Positions 1-58,274 of a stretch of DNA of 64,000 nt are shown here, piece after piece. The notes beneath the pieces were generated by a model. That model saw only the letters and a program-made list of their open reading frames with translations, was not told the DNA's origin and ran no database searches. A program made the translations under genes and the position numbers. The DNA is taken from the NCBI GenBank assembly GCA_025336685.1, contig GCA_025336685.1_4717.1. The stretch is one strand, 5' to 3'. Numbering within the stretch: the stretch's first letter is position 1; each line of letters starts with the position of its first letter. This DNA comes from Escherichia coli (GTDB lineage: Bacteria; Pseudomonadota; Gammaproteobacteria; Enterobacterales; Enterobacteriaceae).

Positions 1-321
1 GACAGGTAATATCTCAGAGACCTTGGTTAGTGTATCTAAGGTTTCGATCTCGATGGGCCAGCGGTGCTGTCCGCCAGGCCAAATACCCAGTTTACCAAGA
101 TCGACGCGGTTATAATAGATGTCGACAGAGTTCACCAGCCCTGAACCCGGTTGGGGATGCACGGTTAACTTGCTGTTACGCTTGTACCCTGTGCTTTCAG
201 AAGCCTCACCGATAACCAGTTTATCCAGCGTTACGCCTCGAGCGTCGAAATCGCTATGCTTTCGAATCAGCCGAAAGAGGATTTCTTTCGATTCTAACCC
301 TAGGATTTCACTGTACTCCAT
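1..321 (-). CDS. hypothetical protein, 5' part only (ORF continues past window start)
   Basis: ATG at 321-319 preceded by GGGGTG SD; open frame with no stop down to position 1 (107 codons translated by hand); not in ORF track because no stop in window. Confidence 0.6.
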   Translation of the reverse strand, partial: MEYSEILGLESKEILFRLIRKHSDFDARGVTLDKLVIGEASESTGYKRNSKLTVHPQPGSGLVNSVDIYYNRVDLGKLGIWPGGQHRWPIEIETLDTLTKVSEILPV

Positions 322-546: not shown

Positions 547-615
547 CCCAATTTCAGAAATAACCGCGCAGTACTCTTCAATTACCCGGAGAGTTTAGCC
601 ACATTGAGATATTCG

Positions 616-1221
616 TTAATATCCTGATGGTGTCCAGACCAAAGAGACTCCAGCTATAATCGTAGTACTTCCGGTCGCTACCAGAATTCCTGTTGTTGGA
701 ATATCCGGTCGGGGCGGGTTGAGGTTCTTGTCGGTCGGATGCCATTCGATAGTCTGAGCAACACCATCGATGTACTTGGTATATCGCATGGAGCGGACAA
801 CGTTATCGAAATCGATGCGACGACCGTAATAACAGATGTACTTTTTACCGTTTTCCAGCGTCTCAATACGACGTAACCCAAATCTAGCACGTTCGTCCGT
901 GGTCAAATCGTTACCAACTTCACGCATCACGAAAGGTTTGATTTTCCATGGTGAAAGATCGCTTGCTTCGTGAGCGATCGGCATCGAGGAAGGGATGCCG
1001 TTAGCGTTGCGGATGAATTCGTGACCTTGGTTGCCGATACAGAAGTAACGTACAGCAGGATTACCCTCGGGGTAAATCTTTGATTGAATCTGAAGCTTTT
1101 CGTTCAAGGTGCTGTGTTCTTCCCACGCATGAGGAAGACCGAGCGTAAGGTTCGTTTGTACTTGACCGCCGATAATCGTACGGACGATACGATCGGTAGC
1201 ACGGATTTGTGTAGAAGCCAT
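616..1221 (-). CDS. hypothetical protein (201 aa)
   Basis: ORF track; ATG at 1221; tight spacing with upstream gene. Confidence 0.7.
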   Translation of the reverse strand: MASTQIRATDRIVRTIIGGQVQTNLTLGLPHAWEEHSTLNEKLQIQSKIYPEGNPAVRYFCIGNQGHEFIRNANGIPSSMPIAHEASDLSPWKIKPFVMREVGNDLTTDERARFGLRRIETLENGKKYICYYGRRIDFDNVVRSMRYTKYIDGVAQTIEWHPTDKNLNPPRPDIPTTGILVATGSTTIIAGVSLVWTPSGY

Positions 1222-21215: not shown

Positions 21216-22118
21216 TTAGAAATTATTGCCGAACCGGTTATGGTTGTATGGTTGGTAGTGTCCGTAATTGCCTGGGAAGCCACCATACGTCGTAGGCTCC
21301 GGTTTAGGGACTTCCATAATCGGATTTTTAGAATTGATCGCCATCACGTAAAGGGTTACGGGTGATGCTGCGTGGCCCATTTCGACGACCACACGGCGGA
21401 TATAATCAATGTATGCTGTTATTGCAGGCGTCAGTTTGTCTCCTTCGGTAGTTATAACGGTGCCGTCGGAAAGAATCTCACGAACCGCGCACCATTTACC
21501 AAGATGAACTCCTTGCTGCGGCTTTACTCCAGCAGAGATAGAGAGATAGGTATCGTACGTCGTTTGATGATACGGATGACTATAAATAGATTCCGCTTTG
21601 TTTTCGTCTTTCCCTAAGTACTCGCCTTGCTTAGGAGTATGAGTTGATATCATATCGGTATTTTCCACGAATGTCTTTCCTTCGAGTTGTTTGATTAATC
21701 GTTTAACCGATTCAGTTATGTTGTTGTGTCTAGGGATCAGCTTTAAGTAAACAGTCGGTAACTGGATTGTTGACCCATCACTACTGCGCGGATAAGATAA
21801 TTTGTAAAACTGTTCAAAAATCCGCCGTAACGCTTCGTTGTCTGAAGTTGCCAATTTAACATAGGAGCATCGTCCTTTAGCATTGGGATTGTAGAGAAGG
21901 AGAATAACGTCTTCGTCAGTACGTGTATCCTGAGGATGACAAGCGATGTAGTGAATGGGAATAGCCGTATCTTTTTCGTCTCCCGGTTTGATAGACAATG
22001 AAAAATCATGAGTTTCTTTTAACGTTCGTAACGTGCAGGATGCGTCGTCACTATTAAGTAAGAACACACCGAAACGCACGCTTTCGTATGCTGACGGGTC
22101 GCGTATTAATAAGGTCAT
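21216..22118 (-). CDS. hypothetical protein, tandem paralog family with HP.H.TYD.YL motif (about 300 aa)
   Basis: ORF-track start 22196 is TTG; ATG at 22118 has AGGAG SD at 7 nt; shares HPYHQTTYDTYLSISAGV with 22204-22977. Confidence 0.8.
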   Translation of the reverse strand: MTLLIRDPSAYESVRFGVFLLNSDDASCTLRTLKETHDFSLSIKPGDEKDTAIPIHYIACHPQDTRTDEDVILLLYNPNAKGRCSYVKLATSDNEALRRIFEQFYKLSYPRSSDGSTIQLPTVYLKLIPRHNNITESVKRLIKQLEGKTFVENTDMISTHTPKQGEYLGKDENKAESIYSHPYHQTTYDTYLSISAGVKPQQGVHLGKWCAVREILSDGTVITTEGDKLTPAITAYIDYIRRVVVEMGHAASPVTLYVMAINSKNPIMEVPKPEPTTYGGFPGNYGHYQPYNHNRFGNNF

Positions 22119-22203
22119 GTTCGGCTCCTTGATTACGATAAGGATGATTGCGGTTTTGTGGTGCTGGTAGGGCCCTAAACAAAGGAACCCTACCAATATT
22201 AGG

Positions 22204-22977
22204 TTATTCAGGATCGGCGTAGAAATGGTGAGGATAGCCGGAGTACGATCCTGCGTTACCGGCTATGGATTCTTTCTGGGAATCGACGACGAGCGCATAG
22301 AACTGTCGGGAATTTGTTAGCGTTGAGAAATAAGCGGAAAGGACTTTTTCATTCAACGCATCGCAAGGTAGACAGGTGCGACCGCAAAACGTAACGATAC
22401 GGCCGTCAGGATAGATCTCACGAATCATTCTCCACTCACCGATATCCACTGGTGATGGTGCTGCTACACCACCTGTTATCGTTAAGTAACGATCGTACGT
22501 GGTATGGCATTCAGGATGAATATAGATCGGCTTGTTCGTTTCGACAGGTTCCGAAGTGTCTCGACGACTAAGGAGTTCAACGACTTCAAGATAAATCGTT
22601 GGTAGATCGCGGAGAATACCGGTGTTACGACGTTTCTTTGTGATTCGCGGACGAATCTCGTTAAGAGCGTATTCGAGCTTACGTTCAGCTTCGTACGCAT
22701 CGAGTTTTATTAGGTGGCCCGGTTCATCGGAATGATCCTGAGTTATGTAAACGAAATACGTGTTGTCTTTTGCAGCGCGAAAGATTCGAGCGACCTTAAA
22801 TGTTTCTACAGTGCGATAACCAAGGCGCGATTGATTTTCCACAGGAGAAAATATCCAATGTCGTCCTTCGTCCGCCCCAACAATTTCGTTGAAACTATCC
22901 GTTTGTTCTGGGACCTGGTAGTCAGCCATTAATGTATCAAGAGCGTCATCGGCCAGTTTGGTGTAAATATCTGTCAT
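22204..22977 (-). CDS. hypothetical protein, tandem paralog of 21216-22118 (257 aa)
   Basis: ATG at 22977 with GAGGA SD; HPECHTTYDRYLTITGGV motif. Confidence 0.8.
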   Translation of the reverse strand: MTDIYTKLADDALDTLMADYQVPEQTDSFNEIVGADEGRHWIFSPVENQSRLGYRTVETFKVARIFRAAKDNTYFVYITQDHSDEPGHLIKLDAYEAERKLEYALNEIRPRITKKRRNTGILRDLPTIYLEVVELLSRRDTSEPVETNKPIYIHPECHTTYDRYLTITGGVAAPSPVDIGEWRMIREIYPDGRIVTFCGRTCLPCDALNEKVLSAYFSTLTNSRQFYALVVDSQKESIAGNAGSYSGYPHHFYADPE

Positions 22978-34353: not shown

Positions 34354-35643
34354 TTATGCTTTTTCGGTCGCTGCGTTGAAGTATTTCGCAGCAGCAAATA
34401 CAGCATCCGCATACTGACGTACAGAGGCACGGAGGATCTTAGTTCCTAATACAGAGCTTAAACGAGCCATTTCTGTTACAGCTGTGATATAAGGACGTAC
34501 GGTTTCACGATCAGCCTCAGGTAACTTGTCGAGCATTTCGCCCCACTTCGTTTTGATCTGCATTCCGTTGAGTTTAGCGTCTCGTCCTACAGAGCGCGCC
34601 AAACTTTCAACTTTATGCAAATACGTCGGTTCCACCATACGGAATGCCTTCAGATATGCAGTCAATGCGCTTTTCAGCTCATTCCCATCGTGGAAAATAT
34701 TCGCATTTTCGATTTTATCTGTTACGGTGTCAACAACTTCAATATGAACATCCTTCACCAAAGCACATGCTTTAACGACATCCTTCTCTTTTTCTAGCGC
34801 ATCCAACCCTTTAACGACATATTGTTTTCCACCACTTTCTGGAAGTCTGAACGCCCTCAGTGCGGCTTTAGTGGCCTGAAGATACTCGTCTAGGACACGA
34901 TCAAGCGTTGTTAAATCAGTTAGGACATTAATGTCGTAGTTGATATCGCCGATCTTAGTAAATAAGAAATCTGATATCGTCGCACTTGCAGCCAGTTGTT
35001 CGATATGTTTGCTAACGGATGCCGCATCAACAGATTTTGCGTTCGGGAACATATTAACCATATTCCCGGTAGGCTTCTCTAGTTGTTTGATCTGACGTTC
35101 CCCTTTATTGACTTCGGATGCAATTTTGGTGATCTCAGCATAAGCCAGAACGAGATTCTTGAACAACATCTGGAACAGTTTGAACAGTTGCTCAGCAATA
35201 TTTGCAATGATTACCCAAACTGCGTATAACGCTTGTGCTGCGCGTTCTTTAAAGCCTTCCAGTACGATAGCCTGTCCTTCCACTAATTTATCATTAGCCT
35301 GGAACATGTCTTCATCAGACATCCCCAGGTTTGCTGCTGATGTCGAAGCGATCTGACGGATAAGTGCGACGTCGCTCACACGTGCTTCCGAGATCGTTGG
35401 TGCGATCATGTACGCTGTATCTTCCAGCGTTGCTGAGGTACGCACTGCAATTTCAGCCAGTTCGCTGGATTCATCGATTGTCTCGTCGGTATGTCGAATC
35501 ACCAACTCAACTTCACCCTCTTCAATTTCTGCGTTAGGATCGTGTTGCTCCGTCGGAATCGTCGCGAGAAGATCTTCGGCGCTGAGCAATGCGAGTTCGA
35601 ATGCGTTTTTATTGACGTTGTCAAAAAGAGAAATACGTGCCAT
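34354..35643 (-). CDS. head-internal (inner-body-like) protein paralog (429 aa)
   Basis: ATG with AGGAA SD; VSDVALIRQIASTSAANLG and IVLEGFK segments. Confidence 0.85.
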   Translation of the reverse strand: MARISLFDNVNKNAFELALLSAEDLLATIPTEQHDPNAEIEEGEVELVIRHTDETIDESSELAEIAVRTSATLEDTAYMIAPTISEARVSDVALIRQIASTSAANLGMSDEDMFQANDKLVEGQAIVLEGFKERAAQALYAVWVIIANIAEQLFKLFQMLFKNLVLAYAEITKIASEVNKGERQIKQLEKPTGNMVNMFPNAKSVDAASVSKHIEQLAASATISDFLFTKIGDINYDINVLTDLTTLDRVLDEYLQATKAALRAFRLPESGGKQYVVKGLDALEKEKDVVKACALVKDVHIEVVDTVTDKIENANIFHDGNELKSALTAYLKAFRMVEPTYLHKVESLARSVGRDAKLNGMQIKTKWGEMLDKLPEADRETVRPYITAVTEMARLSSVLGTKILRASVRQYADAVFAAAKYFNAATEKA

Positions 35644-37071: not shown

Positions 37072-38397
37072 TTACTGCTGTGCTGCGTCAGCCGGTTTCT
37101 CGGCCGCCTGGCCGCCGTACTCTTTCAGCATTTTAGCAGCGCCATCCAGGACAGCGTTACCTGCCTGAACACCGTATTTCATCAGACCAGTCTGTGGGTT
37201 CACGTAGCAGGAACGTGCGTCTTTCAGTGCAGACAGTACAGCTTGAACACGCTGTTTTTCCTGAGCGGAAACTTCGCCTTTCTTAGACAGATCAGCTTCC
37301 ATTGCGTCGCCGAATTTAACAGCGTCTTTGAAGCCCTGGGATTTCTTACCGATGTTGCCTTTCAGCGCCAGCAGTTTGTCAGCCAGTACTTCAACACCGC
37401 TAACCGCAGCGGCCAGCTGATTCAGGGACAGGACGGTAGCTTCAACTTCTTTTGCTTCACCGGAGCGTTCCCAGGTTACTTTACCATCGTTGGCTTTGAA
37501 ACCCCAGCCCGCAGGACCAGCAACGTCAGCAATCGCCGGAGCGTTCAGTTTATCGGCGTACTCGGTGTGAGATTTAGCAACAACAGTGTTGACGAATTTA
37601 TCAGCACGATCGTCAGCAGCCTTCATTGCTTTCTCGAAGGTGTCGGCGATTTTGGTCGCACCGGTAACCAGATCGTCGCCACCGATGTAACCTGAAATGC
37701 CACTACCCAGGGTAACTTTGGCATTTTTAGCAGCGCCTTTACGCTTGGCGATCATTTCTTTCAGTTTAGCAGCGCGTGCTTTCAGTTTGGTCGCGCCGTC
37801 GAAGATGCGATCCATGAACTTCACGAAGGTTTCCCAGGAAGTTTTCAGGAAGTTCTTGATGGTTGCCCACAGTTTCTGCCACCATTTTTGTTCTTCCAGG
37901 AAGATCATGTTGGTTGCATCGTAACGGGAAGCAGAACCACCGAAGCTTTCGAAGGACGGCATGGTTTCCGGCAGTTTGAAACCGATAGTACCACACAGGC
38001 GTTTCAGGTTACGCATGTGTTCCTGAGCGGTTTGTGCAGACATACCACCGTCTTTCAGGTAGCTTTCGGTTGCAACAACGGTTTCCGTCAGTTCATCCAT
38101 GGCTTCATCCATGGCTTCTGCGGTTTCGTCGTCTTTTGCAATTTCGATAACAACAGCGTCAACCTGCTCGATATCGCCACGAACTTCGATAGCCAGTTCG
38201 GTTTCAGCTGCAGTATCTTCAGCGATTTCAGCGCGTTCGGTCAGTTCAGCTACAACGGTTTCATCTGCTGCTGCTGCGGCATCAGCTGCCGGTTCTGCTT
38301 CAACGGTTGCCGCTGCATCCGGATCGATCTCAGCAGCCAGTTGAACCAGCTGTGCGTTAGATGGATTTGCGACAAGACGATCAAAAATAGAAGGCAT
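37072..38397 (-). CDS. abundant head-internal protein paralog, codon-optimised (441 aa)
   Basis: ATG at 38397 with AAAGGAAA SD; strongly optimised codon usage like the capsid candidate; Ala/Glu-rich acidic N-terminus; SFESFGG motif. Confidence 0.9.
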   Translation of the reverse strand: MPSIFDRLVANPSNAQLVQLAAEIDPDAAATVEAEPAADAAAAADETVVAELTERAEIAEDTAAETELAIEVRGDIEQVDAVVIEIAKDDETAEAMDEAMDELTETVVATESYLKDGGMSAQTAQEHMRNLKRLCGTIGFKLPETMPSFESFGGSASRYDATNMIFLEEQKWWQKLWATIKNFLKTSWETFVKFMDRIFDGATKLKARAAKLKEMIAKRKGAAKNAKVTLGSGISGYIGGDDLVTGATKIADTFEKAMKAADDRADKFVNTVVAKSHTEYADKLNAPAIADVAGPAGWGFKANDGKVTWERSGEAKEVEATVLSLNQLAAAVSGVEVLADKLLALKGNIGKKSQGFKDAVKFGDAMEADLSKKGEVSAQEKQRVQAVLSALKDARSCYVNPQTGLMKYGVQAGNAVLDGAAKMLKEYGGQAAEKPADAAQQ

Positions 38398-38422
38398 AAT
38401 TTGTTTCCTTTACAATAAATTG

Positions 38423-38438
38423 CACATTAGCTAATGTG
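38423..38438. promoter_or_regulatory. perfect 16-bp palindrome CACATTAGCTAATGTG about 25 nt upstream of the 441-aa gene start
   Basis: Exact palindrome read directly; adjacent second imperfect inverted repeat (TTAAGTG...CACTTAA). Confidence 0.35.
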
Positions 38439-38461
38439 GCTTAAGTGAGCCATTAGCCCAC

Positions 38462-38992
38462 TTAAAAGCCCTTAAAACCCGGTGCCATAGGTTGCCCAAA
38501 CACCGCATTCAAAGTACATATGATGTCCTGGATGCCATTGTCCCAATGGAGCCAAGTACGCACCATCTCTTCGTCTGACAACGTGATATAACTCATAAGT
38601 TTACCGCTGCTTTCCAGACGTTGGTGCGAACTTAGCGACTGACGATCTGACCAGTTATCAATCAGTTGACCAGCGATCTGAACGTTCGTGTCTCGTCTAC
38701 CTGTGTGAATGAACCGCAGTGTATCACGGATAAACTCCAGACTGGTGAAGTTCAGATTTGGGTTATGGCTGTTCATTTCCACCCAGTCGGTAATGGGGTA
38801 CATCAAACGATAAAGGGTAGAAAGAACCTGACGCTCGTATTTCCAGTCATCGAGAGGAGTACCGTCGACCAGACGCTGATACAAACTAACAACGTCGCGA
38901 TCGTAGTTCTCCTGACGTTTTACGCCGTTAACCGGAAATCCGAAGAATCCGGTACCGTATAACGTTAAAGGGACGTCACGAAGTGCACTCAT
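38462..38992 (-). CDS. hypothetical protein (about 176 aa)
   Basis: ORF-track start 39124 overlaps upstream ORF by 135 nt; internal ATG at 38992 forms an ATGA overlap with the upstream stop. Confidence 0.7.
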   Translation of the reverse strand: MSALRDVPLTLYGTGFFGFPVNGVKRQENYDRDVVSLYQRLVDGTPLDDWKYERQVLSTLYRLMYPITDWVEMNSHNPNLNFTSLEFIRDTLRFIHTGRRDTNVQIAGQLIDNWSDRQSLSSHQRLESSGKLMSYITLSDEEMVRTWLHWDNGIQDIICTLNAVFGQPMAPGFKGF

Positions 38993-39465
38993 ACAGCCGC
39001 CTCTTCTTTTCGTTTGATGTCGTAACGAAGTTTCTTCAGTCGCTCTTCGTGATATTCGATCTGCTGCTGGATTTTTGGATCGTTGCCCGCATTCTGTTGC
39101 TTTTGCTTCAGTGACAAAATCCAATACTCCAACGCTTGGGCTTCTTCTTTGGCTGCTTGTAACGACGCTTCTTCACGTTCGCTGCGCCAGATGCGATAAC
39201 GGTAAATAAGCGTGTTGGTCATTTGAGTGTCGGACCATGAACCCATGCGCATCGGGTCAGTATTACCCGCGTTGTACAACCCATTACCAACACCGTCTTC
39301 ATCAGAAACCACAACATCCGGGATTTTATCCAACCCAGCAAGGATCTGTTGTTTCTGTCCACACAGCACCTCGGTGGCAATGGCGAAACCGTACATGTTG
39401 GCGGTCAGGTAAGCAATCTCGTTTTTGGTGAAGAACTCACCAAGTGCTTTATCACCACCTGGCAT
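38989..39465 (-). CDS. hypothetical coiled-coil protein, intact 3' ORF of a frame-disrupted gene (158 aa)
   Basis: First ATG at 39465; frame stays open without a start for 66 further codons upstream to 39663; codon usage optimised. Confidence 0.6.
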   Translation of the reverse strand: MPGGDKALGEFFTKNEIAYLTANMYGFAIATEVLCGQKQQILAGLDKIPDVVVSDEDGVGNGLYNAGNTDPMRMGSWSDTQMTNTLIYRYRIWRSEREEASLQAAKEEAQALEYWILSLKQKQQNAGNDPKIQQQIEYHEERLKKLRYDIKRKEEAAV

Positions 39466-40121
39466 GCTTTCGCAGATGACTGTCGCACGAAGCAGCGTAC
39501 GAGCGTAGCTAACGTAGAAGCCCAGGGACTCAACAAGACGTACCAGAGCGGCTTCTTTGAAACTCAGACCGTCGGCAGCAACATCGATTTCCAGGTTTTT
39601 GTTAACACGTTTAACAATTTCTGGAATCAGATCAACAGCATTACGTAGCGCTATGAACGTTTTCTACCCAGCTTCCAGAGCGAACGCGGGTTAAACGCTG
39701 ATGCAGATCCTTGTCAGCGAGTTTCCATAAGGCGCTTTCCCTTTTGGAGAAGCGGAGCGGATGTCTCGTAGGCGGAATCGCGGTGTTGTTGATTTCGTCA
39801 CGGATCGATTCAAGTGCGTCAGCAACACCGGCAGGTTTAAAAGCGGCTTCAAACTGCGAATGAATTCTTTAAAATCAATTGCCATGAGTGAGCAATTCCG
39901 CGCTATTTCGAACAGGTTACGTGTGTTAACGAATCTGTGGGACGTTTCCGGTACGGAGGCCTGGAGGATCGTCAGAAGATCAACCCGAGGTTGACGAACT
40001 GTTGATTTTTCCAGCTGTTTGAAGCTTACTGTGGTCCCTTGATCCAAGCTGTGGAAATAGAAGGTCACCATCTCTTCAGCTTGTCGATGATGATCAACTG
40101 CATTGCAAGGGCTTCAGCCAT
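39466..40121 (-). pseudogene. frame-disrupted 5' region of the gene ending at 38989 (at least two frame changes)
   Basis: Three minus-strand frames each carry protein-like open stretches (40121-40065, 40071-39691, about 39880-39664) separated by frame switches; ATG at 40121 lies 13 nt after the upstream stop. Confidence 0.4.
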
Positions 40122-40133
40122 GACTTTCACGTG

Positions 40134-41021
40134 TTATAGCCGACAAACGACGTCCGATTCATGCCTGATGGCTTCCTGGTTAGCCTTAGAGATGATATAG
40201 GTGGAGGCGATTGCTCCAGAAGAAGGGATCTTTGTGCTCGCTGCAGCTTTTGCGGCATTGATGCGCGCAGCATTAACAGCCTTGCGGATACCCTCTTTAT
40301 CCATACGTGAGATTCGTTTGTGTTCACGAACCAGGTCACTAAGCAGGATCATGTCGCTCCAGAAAGACAGCTCACCCGCCATCATGCGATGCCAACGTGC
40401 TCGCCAGGTGTTCTGTGGGCCGCCGATCGCTAAAATCGACGCAAGCACTTCCGCTGGTGAACTTGCAATACGCATGCTGATGTTCAATGGCATTTTCATC
40501 GTTGCCTGACCATCGGTCAGCGTCACGGTTAAGAACTTGCCGGTGACCGCGTTTGCATCTTTGTTCAGCAATTCGATCGCTGCGTCGCTGGCCCCAACAT
40601 CGAGGCTATTTTTTTGTTTCCCCAGCAGGTTGAATCCTTTGTCATCAAGGAAAACAAGGCTTTTGCTATCCGCACTTTCCAGTGCTAATTTAACAGCCTT
40701 ATCCATCATGTTAGCGTTACGGTTTGGATTCACACGACCCAGCGTTTTATCGACACTGATATTACCCACCTGCATGATGGTGTTCAACGCCAGTAAATAG
40801 AACCCGGTATACATATTTTCAGCGGTGCGCATGCAGTTGCCTAACGCATTGCGTGCGTCGCTATAATACAACTCACGTTCAAAGATCAACGGCGCGATAA
40901 CGCGTGAAGGTTGTGAGAGTTCAACCAGCGAACCTGGCTGGATAAGTTTATTAACTTCGTAGACTTTAGCGATACCGGACGCAACAACGTTAACAGCGTC
41001 GGCAATTTCTGATGCTACCAT
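40134..41021 (-). CDS. hypothetical protein (295 aa)
   Basis: ATG at 41021 with AAGGA SD. Confidence 0.8.
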   Translation of the reverse strand: MVASEIADAVNVVASGIAKVYEVNKLIQPGSLVELSQPSRVIAPLIFERELYYSDARNALGNCMRTAENMYTGFYLLALNTIMQVGNISVDKTLGRVNPNRNANMMDKAVKLALESADSKSLVFLDDKGFNLLGKQKNSLDVGASDAAIELLNKDANAVTGKFLTVTLTDGQATMKMPLNISMRIASSPAEVLASILAIGGPQNTWRARWHRMMAGELSFWSDMILLSDLVREHKRISRMDKEGIRKAVNAARINAAKAAASTKIPSSGAIASTYIISKANQEAIRHESDVVCRL

Positions 41022-41055
41022 ATTGAAATCCTTATTTACAAATAAAGGAAAGAAA

Positions 41056-41265
41056 ATGTCTAATTACTACGACCAAGCTATTCAAACCATTCAGGAAGAT
41101 AATGCGTCGTTAACACCCGAAGCTGTGGAGGCAGCGGGCAATGCGGTGTTATTCACTGATTCAGATTGGGCAATGGCGCGGAAGAATATTCGTACCAGTG
41201 TCGGTCAAGGGACATACGGACAGTATCGCCAGACGGTATCGGAATGTGTCACCTATTCCGGGTAA
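41056..41265 (+). CDS. small ORF (69 aa), possibly the 5' part of the downstream gene joined by a +1 frameshift
   Basis: ATG with AAAGGAAAG SD only 34 nt from the divergent start at 41021; overlaps 41141-42259 by 125 nt in another frame. Confidence 0.35.
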   Translation: MSNYYDQAIQTIQEDNASLTPEAVEAAGNAVLFTDSDWAMARKNIRTSVGQGTYGQYRQTVSECVTYSG

Positions 41266-42259
41266 CAGTCCGATTCCGATTAACCGCGATCATGCCGGTA
41301 TTACCTTCTTCACACGACCTAATTTACATCTTACCGACGCGAACTTAAAACGAGATCGACGTTTGTGGTCGTTACGTACGGATAACCCTAACAGTATTCA
41401 GGCTGTTGTCCGTGACTACTTGGACCCTGTGGGTGCCAGAAAGCGGAACCATCGAGGACGTGCCATCGTCGATGAGCGCAATCCATTCATAAGTATACTG
41501 ACGGACAACCTGACGGATATCAGCGGTTTCAATGACATGGAAATGCAGGTCTATCAGGGTAAACCGGGATTACGCCAAGAAACCGTTGTGATGGCTGACG
41601 GTTCAGTGGATATGTTTCAACCCTATAACCTGAACGCGACGTTCAAGAACATCATGGGTAACCCCATCATGTTCCTTCATTATATTTGGTTGATTTACAT
41701 CGCTGGTGTGCATAATGGTGAACTGACGCCAAGCCCTCAGGCCATCATCGACAATGAAATGGATTACTGGACAAGATGTTATCGTATCATCCTGGATCCG
41801 ACTGGGATGTATGTTCGTTATATCTTCGCACCGACCGCGATGTTTCCTGTCGGGTTACCGACTGGTAATATGGCTAACTACAGCATCGATAAACCCTTCA
41901 CGCAAGATAACGAACGTATCACTATTCCATACCAAGCGGTTGGTAACAACGCATTCGATGAAATTCTGAAGGATGAATTCAATCGACTTGTCCTGATGTT
42001 CTATTACGGTGAGAACGATACCCGTACGTTCCTTGAAGATGAGGAGTTGGTACCTATTTCACCCTACGAGCGTCGAATCATGTCGTATCGTGTCGATATG
42101 TATCCATTTATTCATCCGTTGACCTCAGAGCTTCTTTGGTTCGTACCCGCTGATGCTTACAACGAATTCTATCTGGATCTTGAGCCATCGGCGTTACCAC
42201 CGGATACGTTCAGTCGCGATCTTGTCCGTACCACCATTCCGCAAAATTACGAGGGATAA
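41141..42259 (+). CDS. hypothetical protein (372 aa)
   Basis: ATG at 41141 with GGAGG 9 nt upstream; first gene of a plus-strand cluster. Confidence 0.7.
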   Translation: MRCYSLIQIGQWRGRIFVPVSVKGHTDSIARRYRNVSPIPGNSPIPINRDHAGITFFTRPNLHLTDANLKRDRRLWSLRTDNPNSIQAVVRDYLDPVGARKRNHRGRAIVDERNPFISILTDNLTDISGFNDMEMQVYQGKPGLRQETVVMADGSVDMFQPYNLNATFKNIMGNPIMFLHYIWLIYIAGVHNGELTPSPQAIIDNEMDYWTRCYRIILDPTGMYVRYIFAPTAMFPVGLPTGNMANYSIDKPFTQDNERITIPYQAVGNNAFDEILKDEFNRLVLMFYYGENDTRTFLEDEELVPISPYERRIMSYRVDMYPFIHPLTSELLWFVPADAYNEFYLDLEPSALPPDTFSRDLVRTTIPQNYEG

Positions 42260-42262
42260 TAA

Positions 42263-43378
42263 ATGAGCGTAACCAACAAAGATCTTGCTGAACAGCTCAA
42301 TCGCTATATGCTTTCACCCATTGAAATGCAGGCTGTTGCAAGCGATATGATCCGTTTGGCTTCCGATGGTGAGTTAACCCTGGTTGACCCCAGCTGTCCG
42401 TTTGTTTATCTGCTGGAGGTTGCAACGGCGACGGCTGCGAACCAGAACGCGCGGGATGAATCCCGTGTTCGCGAACTGTATCCGAAACTTGCAACCAACT
42501 GGAGCCAGCTCTATCGTTGGATGTATGACGAGTCGTACGTCGGACGTTTCGCAATGCCGGGTAAAACGGAAATCATTTATTCGTTAGGGTATCAGGAAAT
42601 CCTCGATCGTGCTGTAGAGATTCCAAACACCGCCGCATCCGATGATTTAAGCCGTTCTTACAGCCGTAAGTTAGTGATACCACGTACGACGGTGTTTACG
42701 GTAGCCGGAATGGATTTCGGGCTGCATTATCCCATCGAAATCCAAGTGCAGGCGCACGACCAGATACGCGTTGTTTATAACACTGATAACATCAGCCCGC
42801 TGCAAACCTTGGAGAGTAACCAAGTTGAGTATGGTGTTGTTCGTGTAAAAGCGGGTAAAGTGTTGGTGATGCGTATCCCACTGTTCCAGTTTAAAACGCT
42901 GGTAAAAGATGTGCCGTTTAACAGCGTTCACGGGATGAACAGCAGCATTACCTTCGAAGATCAGTTTTACCATTGTCGTGCGTACATGTCGTCGGATAAC
43001 GATACCTGGACGGAGATAGCGACAACCCACAGCCAGCAGATCTACGATCCGTTAACACCGACCATCGCGTTACAAGTAGAAGGGAACAAACTTAACTGGC
43101 GTGTTCCTGAAATTTATTTGTCTCAAGGTACGATGGATAAAAGCACCATTCGACTCGAGGTGTTGACGACGAAAGGGAAAATCAGCGTCGACCCGTCTGA
43201 TTACGACGTGACTGATTGGAAAGATAATTACATCGATCTGTCACCAAAAGCCGAACAGAAATACAGTGCGCCGCTAAGTGCGTTCAACATTAAAGGGATT
43301 TATAGTGAAGGGGCGTTGTCGGGTGGACGATCTGCGTTAACATTCGAGGAACAACGTGAACGCGTTATGGCGAAGTGA
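42263..43378 (+). CDS. hypothetical protein (371 aa)
   Basis: ATG with GAGGGA SD; 3-nt gap to upstream gene. Confidence 0.85.
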   Translation: MSVTNKDLAEQLNRYMLSPIEMQAVASDMIRLASDGELTLVDPSCPFVYLLEVATATAANQNARDESRVRELYPKLATNWSQLYRWMYDESYVGRFAMPGKTEIIYSLGYQEILDRAVEIPNTAASDDLSRSYSRKLVIPRTTVFTVAGMDFGLHYPIEIQVQAHDQIRVVYNTDNISPLQTLESNQVEYGVVRVKAGKVLVMRIPLFQFKTLVKDVPFNSVHGMNSSITFEDQFYHCRAYMSSDNDTWTEIATTHSQQIYDPLTPTIALQVEGNKLNWRVPEIYLSQGTMDKSTIRLEVLTTKGKISVDPSDYDVTDWKDNYIDLSPKAEQKYSAPLSAFNIKGIYSEGALSGGRSALTFEEQRERVMAK

Positions 43379-44712
43379 ACAAAACCGGAGTACCGATCAC
43401 GGGAACACAGGTAGAGCTGGTGCTTCAAGATGCGGGTTATGGGATGGTAACCACTATCGACAACGTAACCAATCGTTCGTTCCTGGCAACCCGAGATTTA
43501 CCGCAATTGAGCGACAGCGTGCCGCAAGCCGGTTCGTTGATGGGGTCTTTCTATACTTCAGCCGCAGCGTTGGTGAAAAGTAAGTTTGTCGCCGATAACG
43601 GCGATCGTATCACGATTAAACCGGACTGTCTGTATCGCGACAGTAACGGAAGTATCGCACTGTTGTCGGACGATGAAATTGACCGTATTAATGCAGGTAA
43701 CTCTGATGCGAAGTTGAACGCGGTAAACAACGCCATGTTGTTTTACAGCCCGTTTCATTACGTGTTGGATGCGACAAGCGATTTCGACATTCATGCTTAT
43801 TACCTGGATGCTCCTAAGATCGGCACACAAGCATTCCTCGACGCGAACGAGACAATCCCGTTAACCGCTATGGTGACCGGATACCGTCTGGATCGTATCG
43901 CTGAAGGATATCGTCTAAGCCTCATTGTAGAAGGTAACGACGCATGGAAGGCGCTCGACGATAAAAACGTGCACGTGCAGCTGGGGTTCAATCCGCGGGG
44001 TGAGGGTGATTATGCGACGATGTTAGCATCACCGACAACCGATGAACAAGGTCGTCGTTTGTTCACCTTCGATATCACCACGAATTATGATTTCACGCGA
44101 ATCCTGGCCGATGATTCCACGGCGTATGAACCATATATCGCATTGACCTCTTTCTCGATGTATGAATCGACACCGCGGGATTACTGGGCATCACTGCAGC
44201 AGTATTTGGAAATCTTCCATGTGGTGACGGATTATGCGCCGGAAGATGTCGACGGTATTTTACACAGTGCTTCCGATAATTACCTGGTTAAGAAACTTAC
44301 GCTTCAAAATGGGTATTGTTTCTACCGTGAACGTCTCACCGCAACCTTTGGTTATGATCTGGATGGTCTTTGGATGCGCTCTCGTACGGTAGCCTCGGAG
44401 ATTACGTATAAACGTTACACCGAGAACATTCCGTGGGTGTATGAAGAAGATATTCCAGCGACGGATGAGACCGGTTCGGTTATCATTGAACAAGGTGATG
44501 ACGGTACGCTGTCAGTTAAATACCTGCATCGTAAAGGTGACCCGAAATTAAACAGTGATGGAAGCCAAGCCTATCGTTATCTGAAAGGCGACATCATGAA
44601 AGATAATTACGGTAATCCGATCCTGTCGATGAACGTGAAGTTCTGCGTAGCCTGGACATGTTCTTTATTGATGCGTCGTATCTGCTTTAGCGAACGATAC
44701 GGACGTGATTGA
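43375..44712 (+). CDS. hypothetical protein (445 aa)
   Basis: GTG start overlapping upstream stop (GTGA); start uncertain. Confidence 0.8.
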   Translation: MNKTGVPITGTQVELVLQDAGYGMVTTIDNVTNRSFLATRDLPQLSDSVPQAGSLMGSFYTSAAALVKSKFVADNGDRITIKPDCLYRDSNGSIALLSDDEIDRINAGNSDAKLNAVNNAMLFYSPFHYVLDATSDFDIHAYYLDAPKIGTQAFLDANETIPLTAMVTGYRLDRIAEGYRLSLIVEGNDAWKALDDKNVHVQLGFNPRGEGDYATMLASPTTDEQGRRLFTFDITTNYDFTRILADDSTAYEPYIALTSFSMYESTPRDYWASLQQYLEIFHVVTDYAPEDVDGILHSASDNYLVKKLTLQNGYCFYRERLTATFGYDLDGLWMRSRTVASEITYKRYTENIPWVYEEDIPATDETGSVIIEQGDDGTLSVKYLHRKGDPKLNSDGSQAYRYLKGDIMKDNYGNPILSMNVKFCVAWTCSLLMRRICFSERYGRD

Positions 44713-45257
44713 GTATCGTAACACGATTCCTACGCAGCTTATCGGAGTGGATCAAGAACGATATCATCACATTCAGGAATTTCTGTTATGAGGAAACAGA
44801 GATTTCACTGTATCCTAAACAATCGTTGGGGTATGTGGATGTTATTGTCGAAAACGGATTGGAAACAACGCTTCCTGCCGCTCTATCGTTCAACGTGACG
44901 CTTTACTTACCAGCTAAGCAATACGCGGATTTGGATCTCCGTCAAGTCCTTCAAGCGATGGTATCGAAAGTCATCAACGAATGCTTAACGTCCCGTACGG
45001 TGGCTAAAGCAGAAATGATCGCGATGATTCGTGAGGAGGGTGGTGACGACATCCTTAACGTTGAAATCGATGATTTTGGACCAGGTAAGAACCTCAGTGT
45101 TTATACTGCGAAGAACGATGGTGTTCGCTGCGCGGTGAAGAAAGAGCTTTATGTGAAAGCGGATGGTATCTTGTCCGTACGTGAAGCGATCGATGTAAGT
45201 TTTGTGAAACATGCACAAAGCAACAGTTCGGCATTAGCGCAAGGCCTTCGTGTCTAA
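44709..45257 (+). CDS. hypothetical protein (182 aa)
   Basis: TTG start overlapping upstream stop (TTGA); no in-frame ATG until aa 88; start uncertain. Confidence 0.65.
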   Translation: MSIVTRFLRSLSEWIKNDIITFRNFCYEETEISLYPKQSLGYVDVIVENGLETTLPAALSFNVTLYLPAKQYADLDLRQVLQAMVSKVINECLTSRTVAKAEMIAMIREEGGDDILNVEIDDFGPGKNLSVYTAKNDGVRCAVKKELYVKADGILSVREAIDVSFVKHAQSNSSALAQGLRV

Positions 45258-45278
45258 AACAAAATAGCATGAGCATAA

Positions 45279-45310
45279 CCCTCCTCCAACCCGTAAGGGA
45301 AGGAGGAGGG
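45279..45310. terminator. junction hairpin CCCTCCTCC-AA-CCC-GTAA-GGG-AA-GGAGGAGGG between convergent genes
   Basis: Identical to the 19727 copy; flanked by CATAA and AATATG. Confidence 0.55.
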
Positions 45311-45319
45311 AATATGTTG

Positions 45320-48112
45320 TTATCTTACGTTGCTGCTATTCTGCTGTTCGCTGAACCAACAGTACACCTTGAGATCGGTACCGTATTTCAATGCGATATA
45401 CGCATTCAGTGCGGCACAGAACAAAGACGCGAATGCCCATATCAGTGAAGGATCAACATCTTCCGTTACCACCCGGGGAGTATTATCCGGTTCCCATGAT
45501 GGAGAACTGTCCATGAACGTCGTGTACCATTCCCGCCGTTGTTCTTCAGTGGTAAAGTCACTATGAGGCTCCAGCGCTTCTTTTGCCAGACGTCGATATT
45601 CGAACACATACGTTGCGAAAGCCGATGAGTTACCAGATTCGCCTTCATAGTTCGGATCCACCGCACAACAGAGTTCTGTGGAATTTAACAAAGCAATCGC
45701 TTGTATGATGCTGTCGGCAGTGCCTGCACTATAGAGCTCGATAGACCGCGAAAGCTTTTCACAGAACGTATTTAACGCGGTAGGATTGGACACCTGAAGG
45801 TCGAGGCCTAATGTCCACGGATAGTTACTGAACACACCCGTAAACCGCGGCATAACACCCAACAGATGTTGTCCGATTACGGCACGGTTATAAACAGCCC
45901 GGTTATAGACTTGAAACGCAGCCTCCAAGGCTTGGTTATAATGACGACGAAGTTCATCACGCGAGTTGCGGAATCTGTTTGCCGCAAGACTTGTGGCTGC
46001 GACGCTACAAACATCGTAATCGGTGGACGAGAGCACGGTTTCGTTAAGATCGAACGCTTCCTGTTTCAATGTTCCGCTAACCGCTGTCGCTTCGCTGTTT
46101 GCTTTATCGACAACAGTACTCAAAGCGTTGATGTAACGTTTAGCTCGGACCTCCAACCATTGTGCGATGCCGAGAATATCCACCGCAGCTTTAGCAAGAT
46201 CGCGGGCGTTCACGATTTCGTTCTTCAACGCACCTAAACCTTTATTCTCAGGCGAAGAGGCTTGTTGACGAATCATGCTGTTCAACATGGTAAGCAGATT
46301 ATCCAACTCATGCCCACTGACCTTGTTACGCGCATCGGTAACTGGTCCTTGCAGGAATTTACGGCAACCGTCGTTGTATCGAATCAGTTTATCCACATCG
46401 ATAGATTCGTTCGTGGATTCCTTGAACTGATCCTTCAATTCTTCACGGTAGTCATGGATTTCACTTGCGAGATTATCGATAGTGATGCCGTTATGTCCAA
46501 GAAGAACTTTATTGAAGTTACCTTTCTCGAATGCAAGAGCAAGACCTTCACGAATCTTAGCGAGTTTATCCTGATCGAGTTCGCGACCGTTCGATAGCTC
46601 TTTCACTTCCGAGCTGATTAGTGCCGCAACGTTACCCAGATTGTCGGTAACCCCTTTGAACGCTCCCGACCAGATCGTTCCTGCTCCAGCGTATTTCGCA
46701 ATGGTCTGAATACCGACGGTGTGCAACGACGCTAAACGTTTCTTTGTGCCTTCGGTAAGCAGAGCGTCTTTAGCTCGCGTAAGTTGACTGTTATTCGCTT
46801 CCGCCTGCTGAATCGCTGCTTTCGCACTTCCATTACGCCAGCTCTTAACCAGCCAATCAACCAAACGTTTTAGGATATTGACGGTGTATTCCATTGTCCG
46901 CCGTAACGTTTCCCACGCGCTTTCTGCGGTATAGATGCCGTACCCTTCCATCTTCGTTGGGTCAAAGAAACCTTCCTGCACGAGATCAGTACGTGTGTAG
47001 CCATCAGCAGCTTCTACTTCCGCCTGGGTTTTATCCCAGAAGTCGTCGCTCTTTGCAGCAACCGCTGTATCTTTAACGTCCAGGATGATCTGACCAACCG
47101 TTTGTGCAAACAGCAAGGCCGCACGTACCGATTGTGCGAACATCCGCTGATATTTGATTCGAACGCATTGCATCTGGGTTAGCAGATTCAGTTGTGCGAT
47201 CCCATCCAAGGTGCTATCCTGAGCAAGCCCTTCGGCTTTAGCGATAACCTGTTTTACACGTTCAGCGACATCACCGTACTGCTGGCAAACATCCCGCAGA
47301 ATACGTGCCGCGAAGACCCCGGTACCGATATAGTTCAATAGGTCTTTTAACGACCATTCGGTCGGGCAATCGGTCGGCGCAATAGGGAGTAAGCAACCAT
47401 CACCGTCCATGAATCTCTCTAATGCGCTAATATCCTGATTTTCTACGCTCATGGGGATATCGACATCAGCCGCTTGCGGATCCAGCATCTGTTGTAGGAT
47501 GTTGGTATCGGCTTGTACAAGCGTCACAAGCGCTTGGCTGTGTGCGATTATTGGTAACGCAGGTGACCATACTGCAGCAAGCTTGTCGGCGTGACGTTGA
47601 ATGGCGTACCCCATATCCTCGATCACATCGGGATGCTCGATAACCCCCTGAAGCGTTTGATGTAGCTCACTGAGTTGCTGAGACAGATCGACCATCATGG
47701 TGTTGAAGGTTTCGCCATCCTCTTTATGGTTGTCCAGACGCTCGAGTTCATGTCGAAGCAATGTGACGAGCTGTCCGCTGCCTTCTTGCTTCAGCTTGCT
47801 TTCCATTAACGTAATGGCTTTATCGACGATCCGACACGCTTCATGAAAACCGGTTGTGGAAGGAAGCTCTGTCCATAACGCCAGCGGTTTACCGTCAAGG
47901 GCTTCCGACATCGATAACGAAAGCATAGACAGTTGTTGACGTGATACTTGCTGTTCACGGTGTAATGTTTCTTTTAACGCCAGGAGATCGTCAAGAAACG
48001 CGCCGTTAAGGGTGGTCGTACGTGGTGTTGAATTAATACCGTCAGTTAACGATTCAAGCACCAGGAGACCGTTATCAGCTGAAGAGAGTCCCGCGGCAAG
48101 ATATTTGTTCAT
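45320..48112 (-). CDS. large hypothetical virion-associated protein (about 930 aa)
   Basis: ORF-track start 48169 is GTG inside the hairpin region; ATG at 48112 has GGAG SD; N-terminal LLVLES motif. Confidence 0.85.
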   Translation of the reverse strand: MNKYLAAGLSSADNGLLVLESLTDGINSTPRTTTLNGAFLDDLLALKETLHREQQVSRQQLSMLSLSMSEALDGKPLALWTELPSTTGFHEACRIVDKAITLMESKLKQEGSGQLVTLLRHELERLDNHKEDGETFNTMMVDLSQQLSELHQTLQGVIEHPDVIEDMGYAIQRHADKLAAVWSPALPIIAHSQALVTLVQADTNILQQMLDPQAADVDIPMSVENQDISALERFMDGDGCLLPIAPTDCPTEWSLKDLLNYIGTGVFAARILRDVCQQYGDVAERVKQVIAKAEGLAQDSTLDGIAQLNLLTQMQCVRIKYQRMFAQSVRAALLFAQTVGQIILDVKDTAVAAKSDDFWDKTQAEVEAADGYTRTDLVQEGFFDPTKMEGYGIYTAESAWETLRRTMEYTVNILKRLVDWLVKSWRNGSAKAAIQQAEANNSQLTRAKDALLTEGTKKRLASLHTVGIQTIAKYAGAGTIWSGAFKGVTDNLGNVAALISSEVKELSNGRELDQDKLAKIREGLALAFEKGNFNKVLLGHNGITIDNLASEIHDYREELKDQFKESTNESIDVDKLIRYNDGCRKFLQGPVTDARNKVSGHELDNLLTMLNSMIRQQASSPENKGLGALKNEIVNARDLAKAAVDILGIAQWLEVRAKRYINALSTVVDKANSEATAVSGTLKQEAFDLNETVLSSTDYDVCSVAATSLAANRFRNSRDELRRHYNQALEAAFQVYNRAVYNRAVIGQHLLGVMPRFTGVFSNYPWTLGLDLQVSNPTALNTFCEKLSRSIELYSAGTADSIIQAIALLNSTELCCAVDPNYEGESGNSSAFATYVFEYRRLAKEALEPHSDFTTEEQRREWYTTFMDSSPSWEPDNTPRVVTEDVDPSLIWAFASLFCAALNAYIALKYGTDLKVYCWFSEQQNSSNVR

Positions 48113-52968: not shown

Positions 52969-54138
52969 ATGAGCGAACAAGAACGAAAACCTAAGAAGAA
53001 ACTGCTCGGTATTCAATGTCGACACATCAGCTATAACGAAGCGAACGATGGTAGTAAGAACGACCTCATGATCGCAAAAGAGATCATGTTCTTCGATGAT
53101 AATACGCAAGCGACGAACCTTCGCTTCTTTGAGAATTACAAACGTCCGTTTTGGGTGACGGTAGAGAGTAAACGTAAGAACAAATATAAAAAGGAAAGCG
53201 AGAAGCTCTCGCATGTGCGTCGCTACGATGTCCGCCAAAGCGAACTGGTTGAAAAGATCAGCTCGGTACTTTATAAAAGACGTGCTGACGATAACACCCG
53301 TTTACAGCAGCTCGCACGGAGTCCCTACCTCTATGGCACGGACGTTAGCGCCAGCTGTTATTTAAAAACCCAATATAATACAAAATGGCCGGAATACGTC
53401 GATAAATTACCCGCTTCTATCGCCTGTTTCGATATCGAAACCGACGTTGTCCATGGACACGGTAAGATCGTCTGTATGTCTATTACAATGGGATACAATG
53501 CGATACTTTGCTATACCAAGGACTTCGTTGGTCATATTCCGAATGCGATTGAGAAAACCCATGAGAAGATCCGATATTACCTGGCCGAACGTCTGAACAC
53601 CAAAGAAGATCCTCACGCGTTCGAAAAATATCAGTACGATGTTCGAATCGTAGAAAGTCCGGCGCAAGCGGTCATCCAATGCATGCAGAAGGTTCACGAA
53701 TGGCAACCGGATTATCTCCTTGGCTGGAATATCGCGTTCGATATTCCGCGCATGCTCCAGGCACTGAACGAGGAAGGGTATCGTCCCGAGGATGTTTTCT
53801 CCGATCCTCGCGTACCCCCTAAGTATCGTATTGCTCGCTGGGTACCACCGAAAACCGACAAGGTATCTGCTTCGGGTCGTAAAACCAACCTTACCCTCGA
53901 GCAGACCTGGCCGATGTTTTATACGATGGCTACGTATCAGGTTATGGATGCGATGTGTGGTTATAAGTTCGTTCGTTTAGGAAGACCGGATGAGGGACGT
54001 TACTCACTCGATGCGGTATTAGAGCGAAATAAATGCCATACGAAATTAAAAGCAATTCCTGGTACAGAAGGGTTCACAGAGCTCGCCTGGCACGAAAGAG
54101 ATGCAAACGAACCATCAAATCGACTACGGCGTATATAA
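52969..54138 (+). CDS. family-B DNA polymerase fragment: N-terminal 3'-5' exonuclease domain (389 aa)
   Basis: Exo I CFDIETD, Exo II YLLGWNIAFD, Exo III-like YQVMDA; weak SD. Confidence 0.8.
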   Translation: MSEQERKPKKKLLGIQCRHISYNEANDGSKNDLMIAKEIMFFDDNTQATNLRFFENYKRPFWVTVESKRKNKYKKESEKLSHVRRYDVRQSELVEKISSVLYKRRADDNTRLQQLARSPYLYGTDVSASCYLKTQYNTKWPEYVDKLPASIACFDIETDVVHGHGKIVCMSITMGYNAILCYTKDFVGHIPNAIEKTHEKIRYYLAERLNTKEDPHAFEKYQYDVRIVESPAQAVIQCMQKVHEWQPDYLLGWNIAFDIPRMLQALNEEGYRPEDVFSDPRVPPKYRIARWVPPKTDKVSASGRKTNLTLEQTWPMFYTMATYQVMDAMCGYKFVRLGRPDEGRYSLDAVLERNKCHTKLKAIPGTEGFTELAWHERDANEPSNRLRRI

Positions 54139-54292
54139 CCTTTGGGATAACCAGGGTATCGAGGCGTTGGACCAGAAAACGAACTATTCTGACATCCCTA
54201 TTCGTTTGGCGGCGTCAGTTTGAAGATTTCAGTTCTAACCCTAAACGTATCTGCGACAAACTTTCTTCGTTTATCTTAACCGTGGGGAAGTC

Positions 54293-54712
54293 ATGGGATG
54301 CACTGCCGACGACATGACCCAGGAAGAAGATAAGTGGGTTATCTCACGAACCGGACATATCGTCACATTACCGTGCGATCTCATGGCAGACAACGGCATT
54401 CATCTCTTCTGGGATATGCCTAATCTGAGAAGTTATATCCGTCTATTCGTTGCAGACCTCGACATAAGCAGTTCATATCCAAATGGGCAGATCCTGCTCA
54501 ATCTATCCAGAGCCTGTGTTTTCCGTGAGCTATCACGCATTGAGGGCGTCTCTGACTATCAATTCAGGAAGTTAGGTATCAACTTTATTACCGGAGGTAA
54601 AACGAACGCTGTAGACTTCTGTAGAATCGTTTATAAAGCACCATCGATGTTTGAACTCTTAGAGCATTTCGATGCGACGCGTCCGAAAGAGGAAGCGCGG
54701 ACCATCGAATGA
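54293..54712 (+). CDS. family-B DNA polymerase fragment carrying motif A (139 aa), separated from the exonuclease ORF by frame changes
   Basis: VADLDISSSYPNG matches pol B motif A (DxxSLYPS); no motif B or C before the stop at 54712. Confidence 0.55.
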   Translation: MGCTADDMTQEEDKWVISRTGHIVTLPCDLMADNGIHLFWDMPNLRSYIRLFVADLDISSSYPNGQILLNLSRACVFRELSRIEGVSDYQFRKLGINFITGGKTNAVDFCRIVYKAPSMFELLEHFDATRPKEEARTIE

Positions 54713-58201: not shown

Positions 58202-58274
58202 TCACCTAGGTTGCGTTTTGTTAATAACAAAACGCATCGCCTTAGTGACCTATGTCACTAAGGTAATATAGCCG
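58202..58274 (-). promoter_or_regulatory. composite regulatory region: TCACCTAGGT half-motif, perfect 25-bp palindrome, 10-bp hairpin, then full GTCACTAAGGTAATATAGCCG motif
   Basis: Palindrome TGCGTTTTGTTAA-T-AACAAAACGCA at 58212-58236 and inverted repeat CCTTAGTGAC/GTCACTAAGG at 58240-58263, both read directly; TATATTAC on the minus strand. Confidence 0.4.

Follow-up and report, generated by a model that had tools for sequence, protein, structure and literature searches.

Does the minus-strand region upstream of the head-internal paralogue cluster in this Escherichia coli draft assembly hold a broken gene, and, if so, what broke it? The window, by which we mean the whole 64,000-nt stretch of DNA analyzed here, had been described in an earlier note as containing a single ancestral gene of about 370 codons disrupted by at least two frame switches. 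The observations behind this proposal are reproducible. The ORF at 38989–39465 on the minus strand encodes 158 aa from an ATG at 39465, and its frame remains open upstream to 39663, where it is closed by a TAG at 39666–39664; the 66 codons of this start-less extension include no ATG, GTG, or TTG. Protein-like stretches, the quoted FEAAFKPAGVADALESIRDEINNTAIPPTR among them, are present in all three minus-strand frames between 39664 and 40121, and we could trace such pieces up to about 40165. They correspond to residues about 301–368 of gp61 and residues 1–80 of gp60 of phage Goslar, and they are not products of chance given that they are 90–100% identical to continuous proteins of relatives.

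The window is collinear with the genome of Escherichia phage vB_EcoM_Goslar, a chimallivirus jumbo phage, with an overall nucleotide identity of 93–96% (also given as about 94%) that amounts to 96% over positions 38400–41100 and to 90–95% over nearly the entire window. The Goslar counterpart of the region is composed of two genes: gp061 (YP_009820746.1, 368 aa, PHROG phrog_3239), annotated in the record as weakly similar to phiKZ ORF089, and, after a 39-nt spacer, gp060 (YP_009820745.1, 300 aa, PHROG phrog_3187). The stop of gp060 overlaps the start of gp059, which encodes a protein with a Pfam PhiKZ_gp91 vertex-binding domain, and the phiKZ_IP paralogues gp058–056 are found farther downstream. 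The same order of a gp61-like gene, gp60, and a PhiKZ_gp91-like gene, with phiKZ_IP paralogues downstream, is found in the window. Neither a Pfam family nor, by sequence search, a solved structure was found for gp60 or gp61. The two genes are already characterized in Goslar and are not new: both proteins are packaged in the virion (more than 200 copies of gp61 and about 140 of gp60), are injected into the host along with the phage genome, and co-localize there with the early-infection vesicle, and AlphaFold predicts that they form a heterodimer (bioRxiv 10.64898/2026.04.21.720040).

Projection of the Goslar codons onto the window places the start of the gp61 orthologue at 41021 and its ancestral stop at 39928–39926; the gene is collinear with Goslar to codon 288, and codons 289–368 are dispersed across three frames. 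The gp60 orthologue extends from an ATG at 39885 to the stop at 38989, comprising 300 codons before the damage, and its frame shifts at codons 16, 40, 50, and 80; the original frame is regained from about 39651 (net −6) and is kept through to the stop. What had been read as one gene of about 370 codons is in fact the last 80 codons of gp61, the 39-nt spacer, and the entire gp60 gene, a count that follows from the Goslar annotation and from alignment with nine further related genomes. The profile matches are consistent with this layout. Goslar gp60 covers positions 5–298 of the 301-position phrog_3187 profile and the 158-aa ORF only positions 156–298, so that the ORF does not represent the whole family of about 300 residues, and the N-terminal 80 residues can be retrieved from the window only by crossing shifted frames. 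Goslar gp61 covers positions 14–372 of the 372-position phrog_3239 profile and the 295-aa ORF of the window positions 14–293; residues 1–288 of this ORF are orthologous to Goslar gp61, the final 7 are out of frame, and the continuous ORF of about 370 codons that is typical of this Goslar gp61/phiKZ gp89-like family is absent. The features are collected in table 1.

Table 1. Coordinates (window positions) of the features of the gp61–gp60 region and of the other damaged genes.
Feature	Position	Strand	Description or evidence
gp59 orthologue (PhiKZ_gp91 vertex-binding protein), intact neighbor	38462..38991	−	100% amino acid identity to Goslar
158-aa ORF, gp60 codons 143–300	38989..39465	−	phrog_3187 match
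66 start-less open codons, gp60 codons 81–142 in the original frame	39466..39663	−	
gp60 5' part, codons 1–80, ATG 39885–39883	39650..39885	−	Alignment, codon projection
gp61–gp60 intergenic spacer	39886..39925	−	Alignment with relatives
Scrambled gp61 codons 289–368, ancestral TAA 39928–39926	39926..40166	−	Alignment with Goslar and eight relatives
Lesion patch, 13 indel events and 20 substitutions	39650..40166	.	Alignment with relatives
Truncated gp61/phiKZ gp89-like ORF, 295 aa	40134..41021	−	PHROG phrog_3239, tblastn with Goslar gp61
gp42-like gene (capsid vertex-binding complex)	17813		+1 insertion, window-unique, splits the gene
gp62-like gene (tail-tube initiator, Pfam Phage_TTP_15)	41219		−2; pieces of 80 and 372 aa
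gp63-like gene (baseplate wedge, 997 aa in Goslar)	43375, 44625, 44685, 44747		Pieces of 371, 445, and 182 aa
gp68 (DNA polymerase in the Goslar annotation)	54095–54262		170-nt patch; +1, −6, −2, −1, and substitutions
gp32-like gene (baseplate wedge)	569–670		Patch of ~100 nt; window-unique indels and substitutions, frame restored (net 0)

For comparison, we gathered two IMG/VR genomes, six metagenome contigs, and one further complete genome (L027), together with two short contigs retrieved by the exact 158-aa product (L005 and L006). The lesions were aligned with eight relatives that are 87–94% identical to the window, and no relative found is closer to it than about 94%. The genes of the relatives are continuous, with 368 aa for gp61 and 299–300 aa for gp60; L027, a ninth relative that is 85% identical to the window, has genes of 368 and 299 aa. 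The gp60 protein cluster formed at 90% identity comprises 175 members, found on hundreds of contigs; of the 15 that are listed, 14 are 300 aa long. The homologues are therefore not genuinely short: Goslar, nine other related genomes, and the 175-member cluster all contain continuous orthologues. The 158-aa product itself is identical to an annotated E. coli protein (NCBI MCT7382388.1/WP_260974239.1, locus tag N5V64_19265) and to ORFs on two metagenome contigs that differ from the window at synonymous sites. No exact match is on record for the 295-aa ORF, the gp56-like product, or the gp58-like product of the window, an exact 46-mer across three of the indels is absent from viral_contigs and genome_contigs, and megablast found no near-identical genome among complete E. 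coli genomes or plasmids. As a separate observation, Goslar-like contigs of ~240 kb with an identical or near-identical gp60 are found in hundreds of assemblies (NCBI, Logan, and ENA) labeled as E. coli, Shigella, Salmonella, and Enterobacter isolates, which suggests that enteric isolates frequently carry this group of jumbo phages or that their sequencing is frequently contaminated by it.

The damage is concentrated in a 517-nt patch (39650–40166) in which 13 indels and 20 substitutions, 33 changes in all, are found in none of the eight aligned relatives, which agree with one another at all 33 positions. That the frames are disrupted relative to continuous orthologues is thus borne out, but "at least two" switches is a large underestimate: between 39654 and 40159 the window differs from Goslar by twelve deletions of 1–4 nt and one 2-nt insertion. 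Eight window-unique deletions fall in the gp61 remnant (40159, 40142, 40129 [4 nt], 40083, 40005, 39982, 39959, and 39913), which also bears clusters of substitutions in the alignment with Goslar and the eight relatives. The spacer contains the insertion and a cluster of four substitutions at 39896–39901, and the 5' part of gp60 has four window-unique deletions (39843, −1; 39772, −1; 39740, −2; 39654, −2; net −6) that produce stops in every frame. About half of the indels lie outside homopolymers, and several adjoin clusters of substitutions that resemble miscalls, for example GAGCGTAAG to AGGCATGA and GCA to CTG.

The patch ignores gene boundaries: it starts within gp61, spans the spacer, and ends at codon 80 of gp60. 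Its edges are sharp. Window-unique states are found in 40 of 535 alignment columns (7.5%) within the patch, in 2 columns of the 661 nt downstream (0.3%), and in 4 of the 855 nt upstream (0.5%). The 220 gp60 codons downstream of the patch are pristine, including codons 81–142, which are practically free of window-unique changes yet are untranslatable as the sequence is written; the edge of the patch is therefore not set by selection. As a neutral yardstick, we used the frequency of window-unique substitutions at 4-fold sites of the intact flanking genes (1.2%), which predicts about 6 substitutions in 517 nt compared with the 20 seen (P about 6e-6). Window-unique indel events number 18 in 11.6 kb, and 13 of them fall inside the 517 nt (P about 2e-14), where fewer than one would be expected, a rough estimate rather than a computed figure. 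A whole-window census of unique substitutions against three relatives was uninformative, as natural mosaic divergence swamps the signal; hence the analysis was restricted to indels and to the region aligned with the eight relatives.

The gp60–gp61 patch is not the only damaged segment. A tblastn search of the window with 49 Goslar proteins recovered 46 orthologues, six of which are frame-broken (gp42, gp60, gp61, gp62, gp63, and gp68), all by window-unique indels; the other 40, among them ORFs of 800–1100 codons, have no frame-breaking lesion. Outside the patches, the parts of the broken genes stay 89–100% identical in protein. The gp68 reading frame is divided into pieces of 389, 94, and 139 aa by a patch located 200–360 nt upstream of an intron insertion site, and the patch in the gp32-like gene resembles that of gp60/gp61 in texture. 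The Goslar tail tube is initiated by gp62, the baseplate wedge includes gp63 and gp32, and gp42 belongs to the capsid vertex-binding complex (bioRxiv 10.64898/2026.04.21.720040). A genome in which all these genes and the polymerase are broken could not make virions on its own.

The window differs from Goslar in several further places. Its DNA polymerase gene lacks an intron (junction at 54456); in Goslar and in two relatives from IMG/VR, ~1.8 kb is inserted at this site (L018 11498–13300). The inserted DNA has an ORF for an HNH/NUMOD endonuclease (Goslar gp069) and matches the Rfam group I intron model RF00028 with 44.7 bits (E 1.5e-9), short of the gathering score of 50. The junction reads FVADLDISSSYPNG and resembles motif A of B-family polymerases, and the short downstream polymerase exon of Goslar appears to be unannotated. 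Pfam recognized none of the DNA polymerase fragments of the window, and the gene was identified as a probable polymerase from the annotation of its Goslar counterpart and from a motif-A-like sequence, DxxSSYP, found at the intron-less junction. A 1.7-kb segment (21248–22973) that is absent from Goslar replaces most of gp047 and contains two minus-strand ORFs (21216–22196, 326 aa, and 22204–22977, 257 aa), neither with a Pfam match. The gp56-like paralogue at 34354–35643 has only ~75% protein identity to Goslar gp56 and matches a second allele group (P0038–P0046) with 93% identity, whereas its neighbors are 96–98% identical to Goslar; judged by its sequence, this copy may be an internal head protein that is mosaic or hypervariable. 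Goslar gp56 itself has a PF12699 fold by AlphaFold prediction (bioRxiv 10.64898/2026.04.21.720040). Finally, a 53-nt intergenic insertion relative to Goslar (58206–58258) contains two short inverted repeats (TTGCGTTTTGTTAATAACAAAACGCA; CCTTAGTGAC..GTCACTAAGG).

We consider it probable (roughly 0.7) that the disruption of gp60 and gp61 represents a local low-quality consensus in a draft assembly, a technical cause that we infer rather than demonstrate. A 517-nt stretch of low accuracy inside an otherwise accurate draft would break both genes; it might derive from reads that are noisy or give very low coverage, for instance in a long-read bridge that was left unpolished, and the real phage would carry intact genes of 368 and 300 aa. 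We favor this reading because the changes are private, exceed the neutral rate, and are dominated by deletions, the edges of the patch are sharp and its flanks accurate, and genes of essential function are hit at random. The spectrum of twelve deletions to one insertion, all short, is error-like and unlike that of natural indels. The changes are confined to a single record, ignore gene boundaries, and recur in essential genes, as expected of an error patch. Several points weigh against a technical cause. The errors are unevenly spread where a purely noisy technology would be expected to scatter them evenly, so that the technical reading must assume a cause that acts in patches; the 158-aa product was deposited at NCBI in this form (MCT7382388.1); four of the broken genes are adjacent (gp60–gp63), which could suggest a regional biological event; and gp60 may be subject to natural N-terminal knock-outs, given the nonsense alleles of L005 and L006. 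The main alternative takes the lesions as real: the contig would then represent a Goslar-like genome that is defective or helper-dependent, carried for example in an E. coli culture, and that was altered in several patches by a localized mutagenic event such as error-prone repair synthesis or the import of a damaged segment. The sequence was deposited and annotated with the 158-aa ORF, the ~240 kb Goslar-like contigs of many isolate assemblies indicate that persistence in culture is common, and clustering is also expected of a localized mutational process. Even so, we regard real lesions of this origin as unlikely. With six genes broken, including those for the tail-tube initiator, a baseplate wedge protein, and what is annotated as the DNA polymerase, such a genome would be non-viable alone, yet 40 other genes are without a frame-breaking lesion and there is no diffuse decay; a donor paralogue is lacking, and we know of no phage process that yields 33 changes in 517 nt dominated by 1–2-nt deletions. 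Gene conversion from a decayed paralogue was rejected, as the patch matches one place in Goslar; no repeats were found in window positions 38000–46000, and neither Goslar nor the window contains another copy of the region. Programmed ribosomal frameshifting or recoding was also rejected, given 13 shifts, none of them present in the eight aligned relatives, all of which have continuous ORFs.

A different way to accept the lesions is to assume that the phage can do without the N-terminal half of gp60 and the C-terminal tail of gp61 and that the C-terminal 158 residues of gp60 are made from Met143. The 158-aa ORF is intact, and its protein is identical in two other contigs despite synonymous differences; in L006, a stop in place of Glu141 (TAA, 760–770), two codons before Met143, yields adjacent ORFs of 140 and 158 aa, and in L005 (1–60) Tyr39 is replaced by a stop, with both contigs retaining the same 158-aa C-terminal ORF. 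These contigs are, however, subject to ascertainment bias: a search by the exact 158-aa product could find a gp60 allele only if it was interrupted before Met143. In addition, the L005 contig has 4.4x coverage and ends 36 nt from the stop. There is also no obvious Shine–Dalgarno sequence before the ATG at 39465, nearly all relatives, in hundreds of contigs, retain 299–300 aa, and a split would leave the supra-neutral rate and the other broken genes unexplained; we therefore judge such natural streamlining highly improbable. Nor would we assign much more weight, as very unlikely, to the related conclusion that the lesions are genuine and mark a natural Goslar-like lineage that lacks the gp61 C-terminal tail and the gp60 N-terminal half and makes the 158-residue domain from Met143. 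The nonsense alleles in the two metagenome contigs are a hint of such a lineage, and the lost parts of gp60 and gp61 might form the interface of the predicted pair. Least credible is the single-gene model of the earlier note, in which a few frameshifts turned one gene of ~370 codons into an ordinary decaying pseudogene. The frame disruption relative to continuous homologues is genuinely in the sequence, but there are two genes, each with its own start and stop, plus a spacer, and there are 13 indels. Decay is limited to a patch that ends inside gp60 and leaves 220 downstream codons pristine, and its rate is above neutral. The lesions of an ordinary pseudogene would be spread over the whole untranslated part at no more than the neutral rate; their confinement to a supra-neutral patch over the spacer and mid-gp60 instead points to a localized error process.

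On the preferred reading of a poor local consensus, the broken gene is most likely not a real biological feature, and the value of the finding lies mainly in quality control: several short unreliable patches generate false pseudogenes in the window, including those of the DNA polymerase and the baseplate genes, and other frame-based findings in the window should be compared with relatives before they are interpreted. Were the lesions confirmed, parts of gp60 and gp61 would be shown to be dispensable, a moderately interesting point for the biology of ejected proteins in chimalliviruses.

Low-accuracy consensus patches of draft and hybrid assemblies are characterized by errors dominated by 1–2-nt deletions, by nearby miscalls at about 6–7% of positions, by sharp edges between accurate flanks, and by random hits on genes of essential function. 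Compared from sequence alone, the patch in the window is like them in its deletions, miscalls, edges, and flanks, as are the other patches in striking genes of essential function. Set against Goslar, the gp61 orthologue has residues 1–288 collinear at ~94% identity and the same divergent arrangement with the gp62-like gene; unlike Goslar gp061, its last 80 codons are scrambled by the eight deletions and its ORF ends after 295 codons. The gp60 orthologue occupies the same gene position as Goslar gp060, codons 81–300 are collinear and near-identical, and residues 143–300 correspond to the 158-aa ORF; Goslar gp060 is continuous, whereas codons 1–80 in the window are spread over three frames by four deletions, and the sequence as written therefore yields no full-length product.
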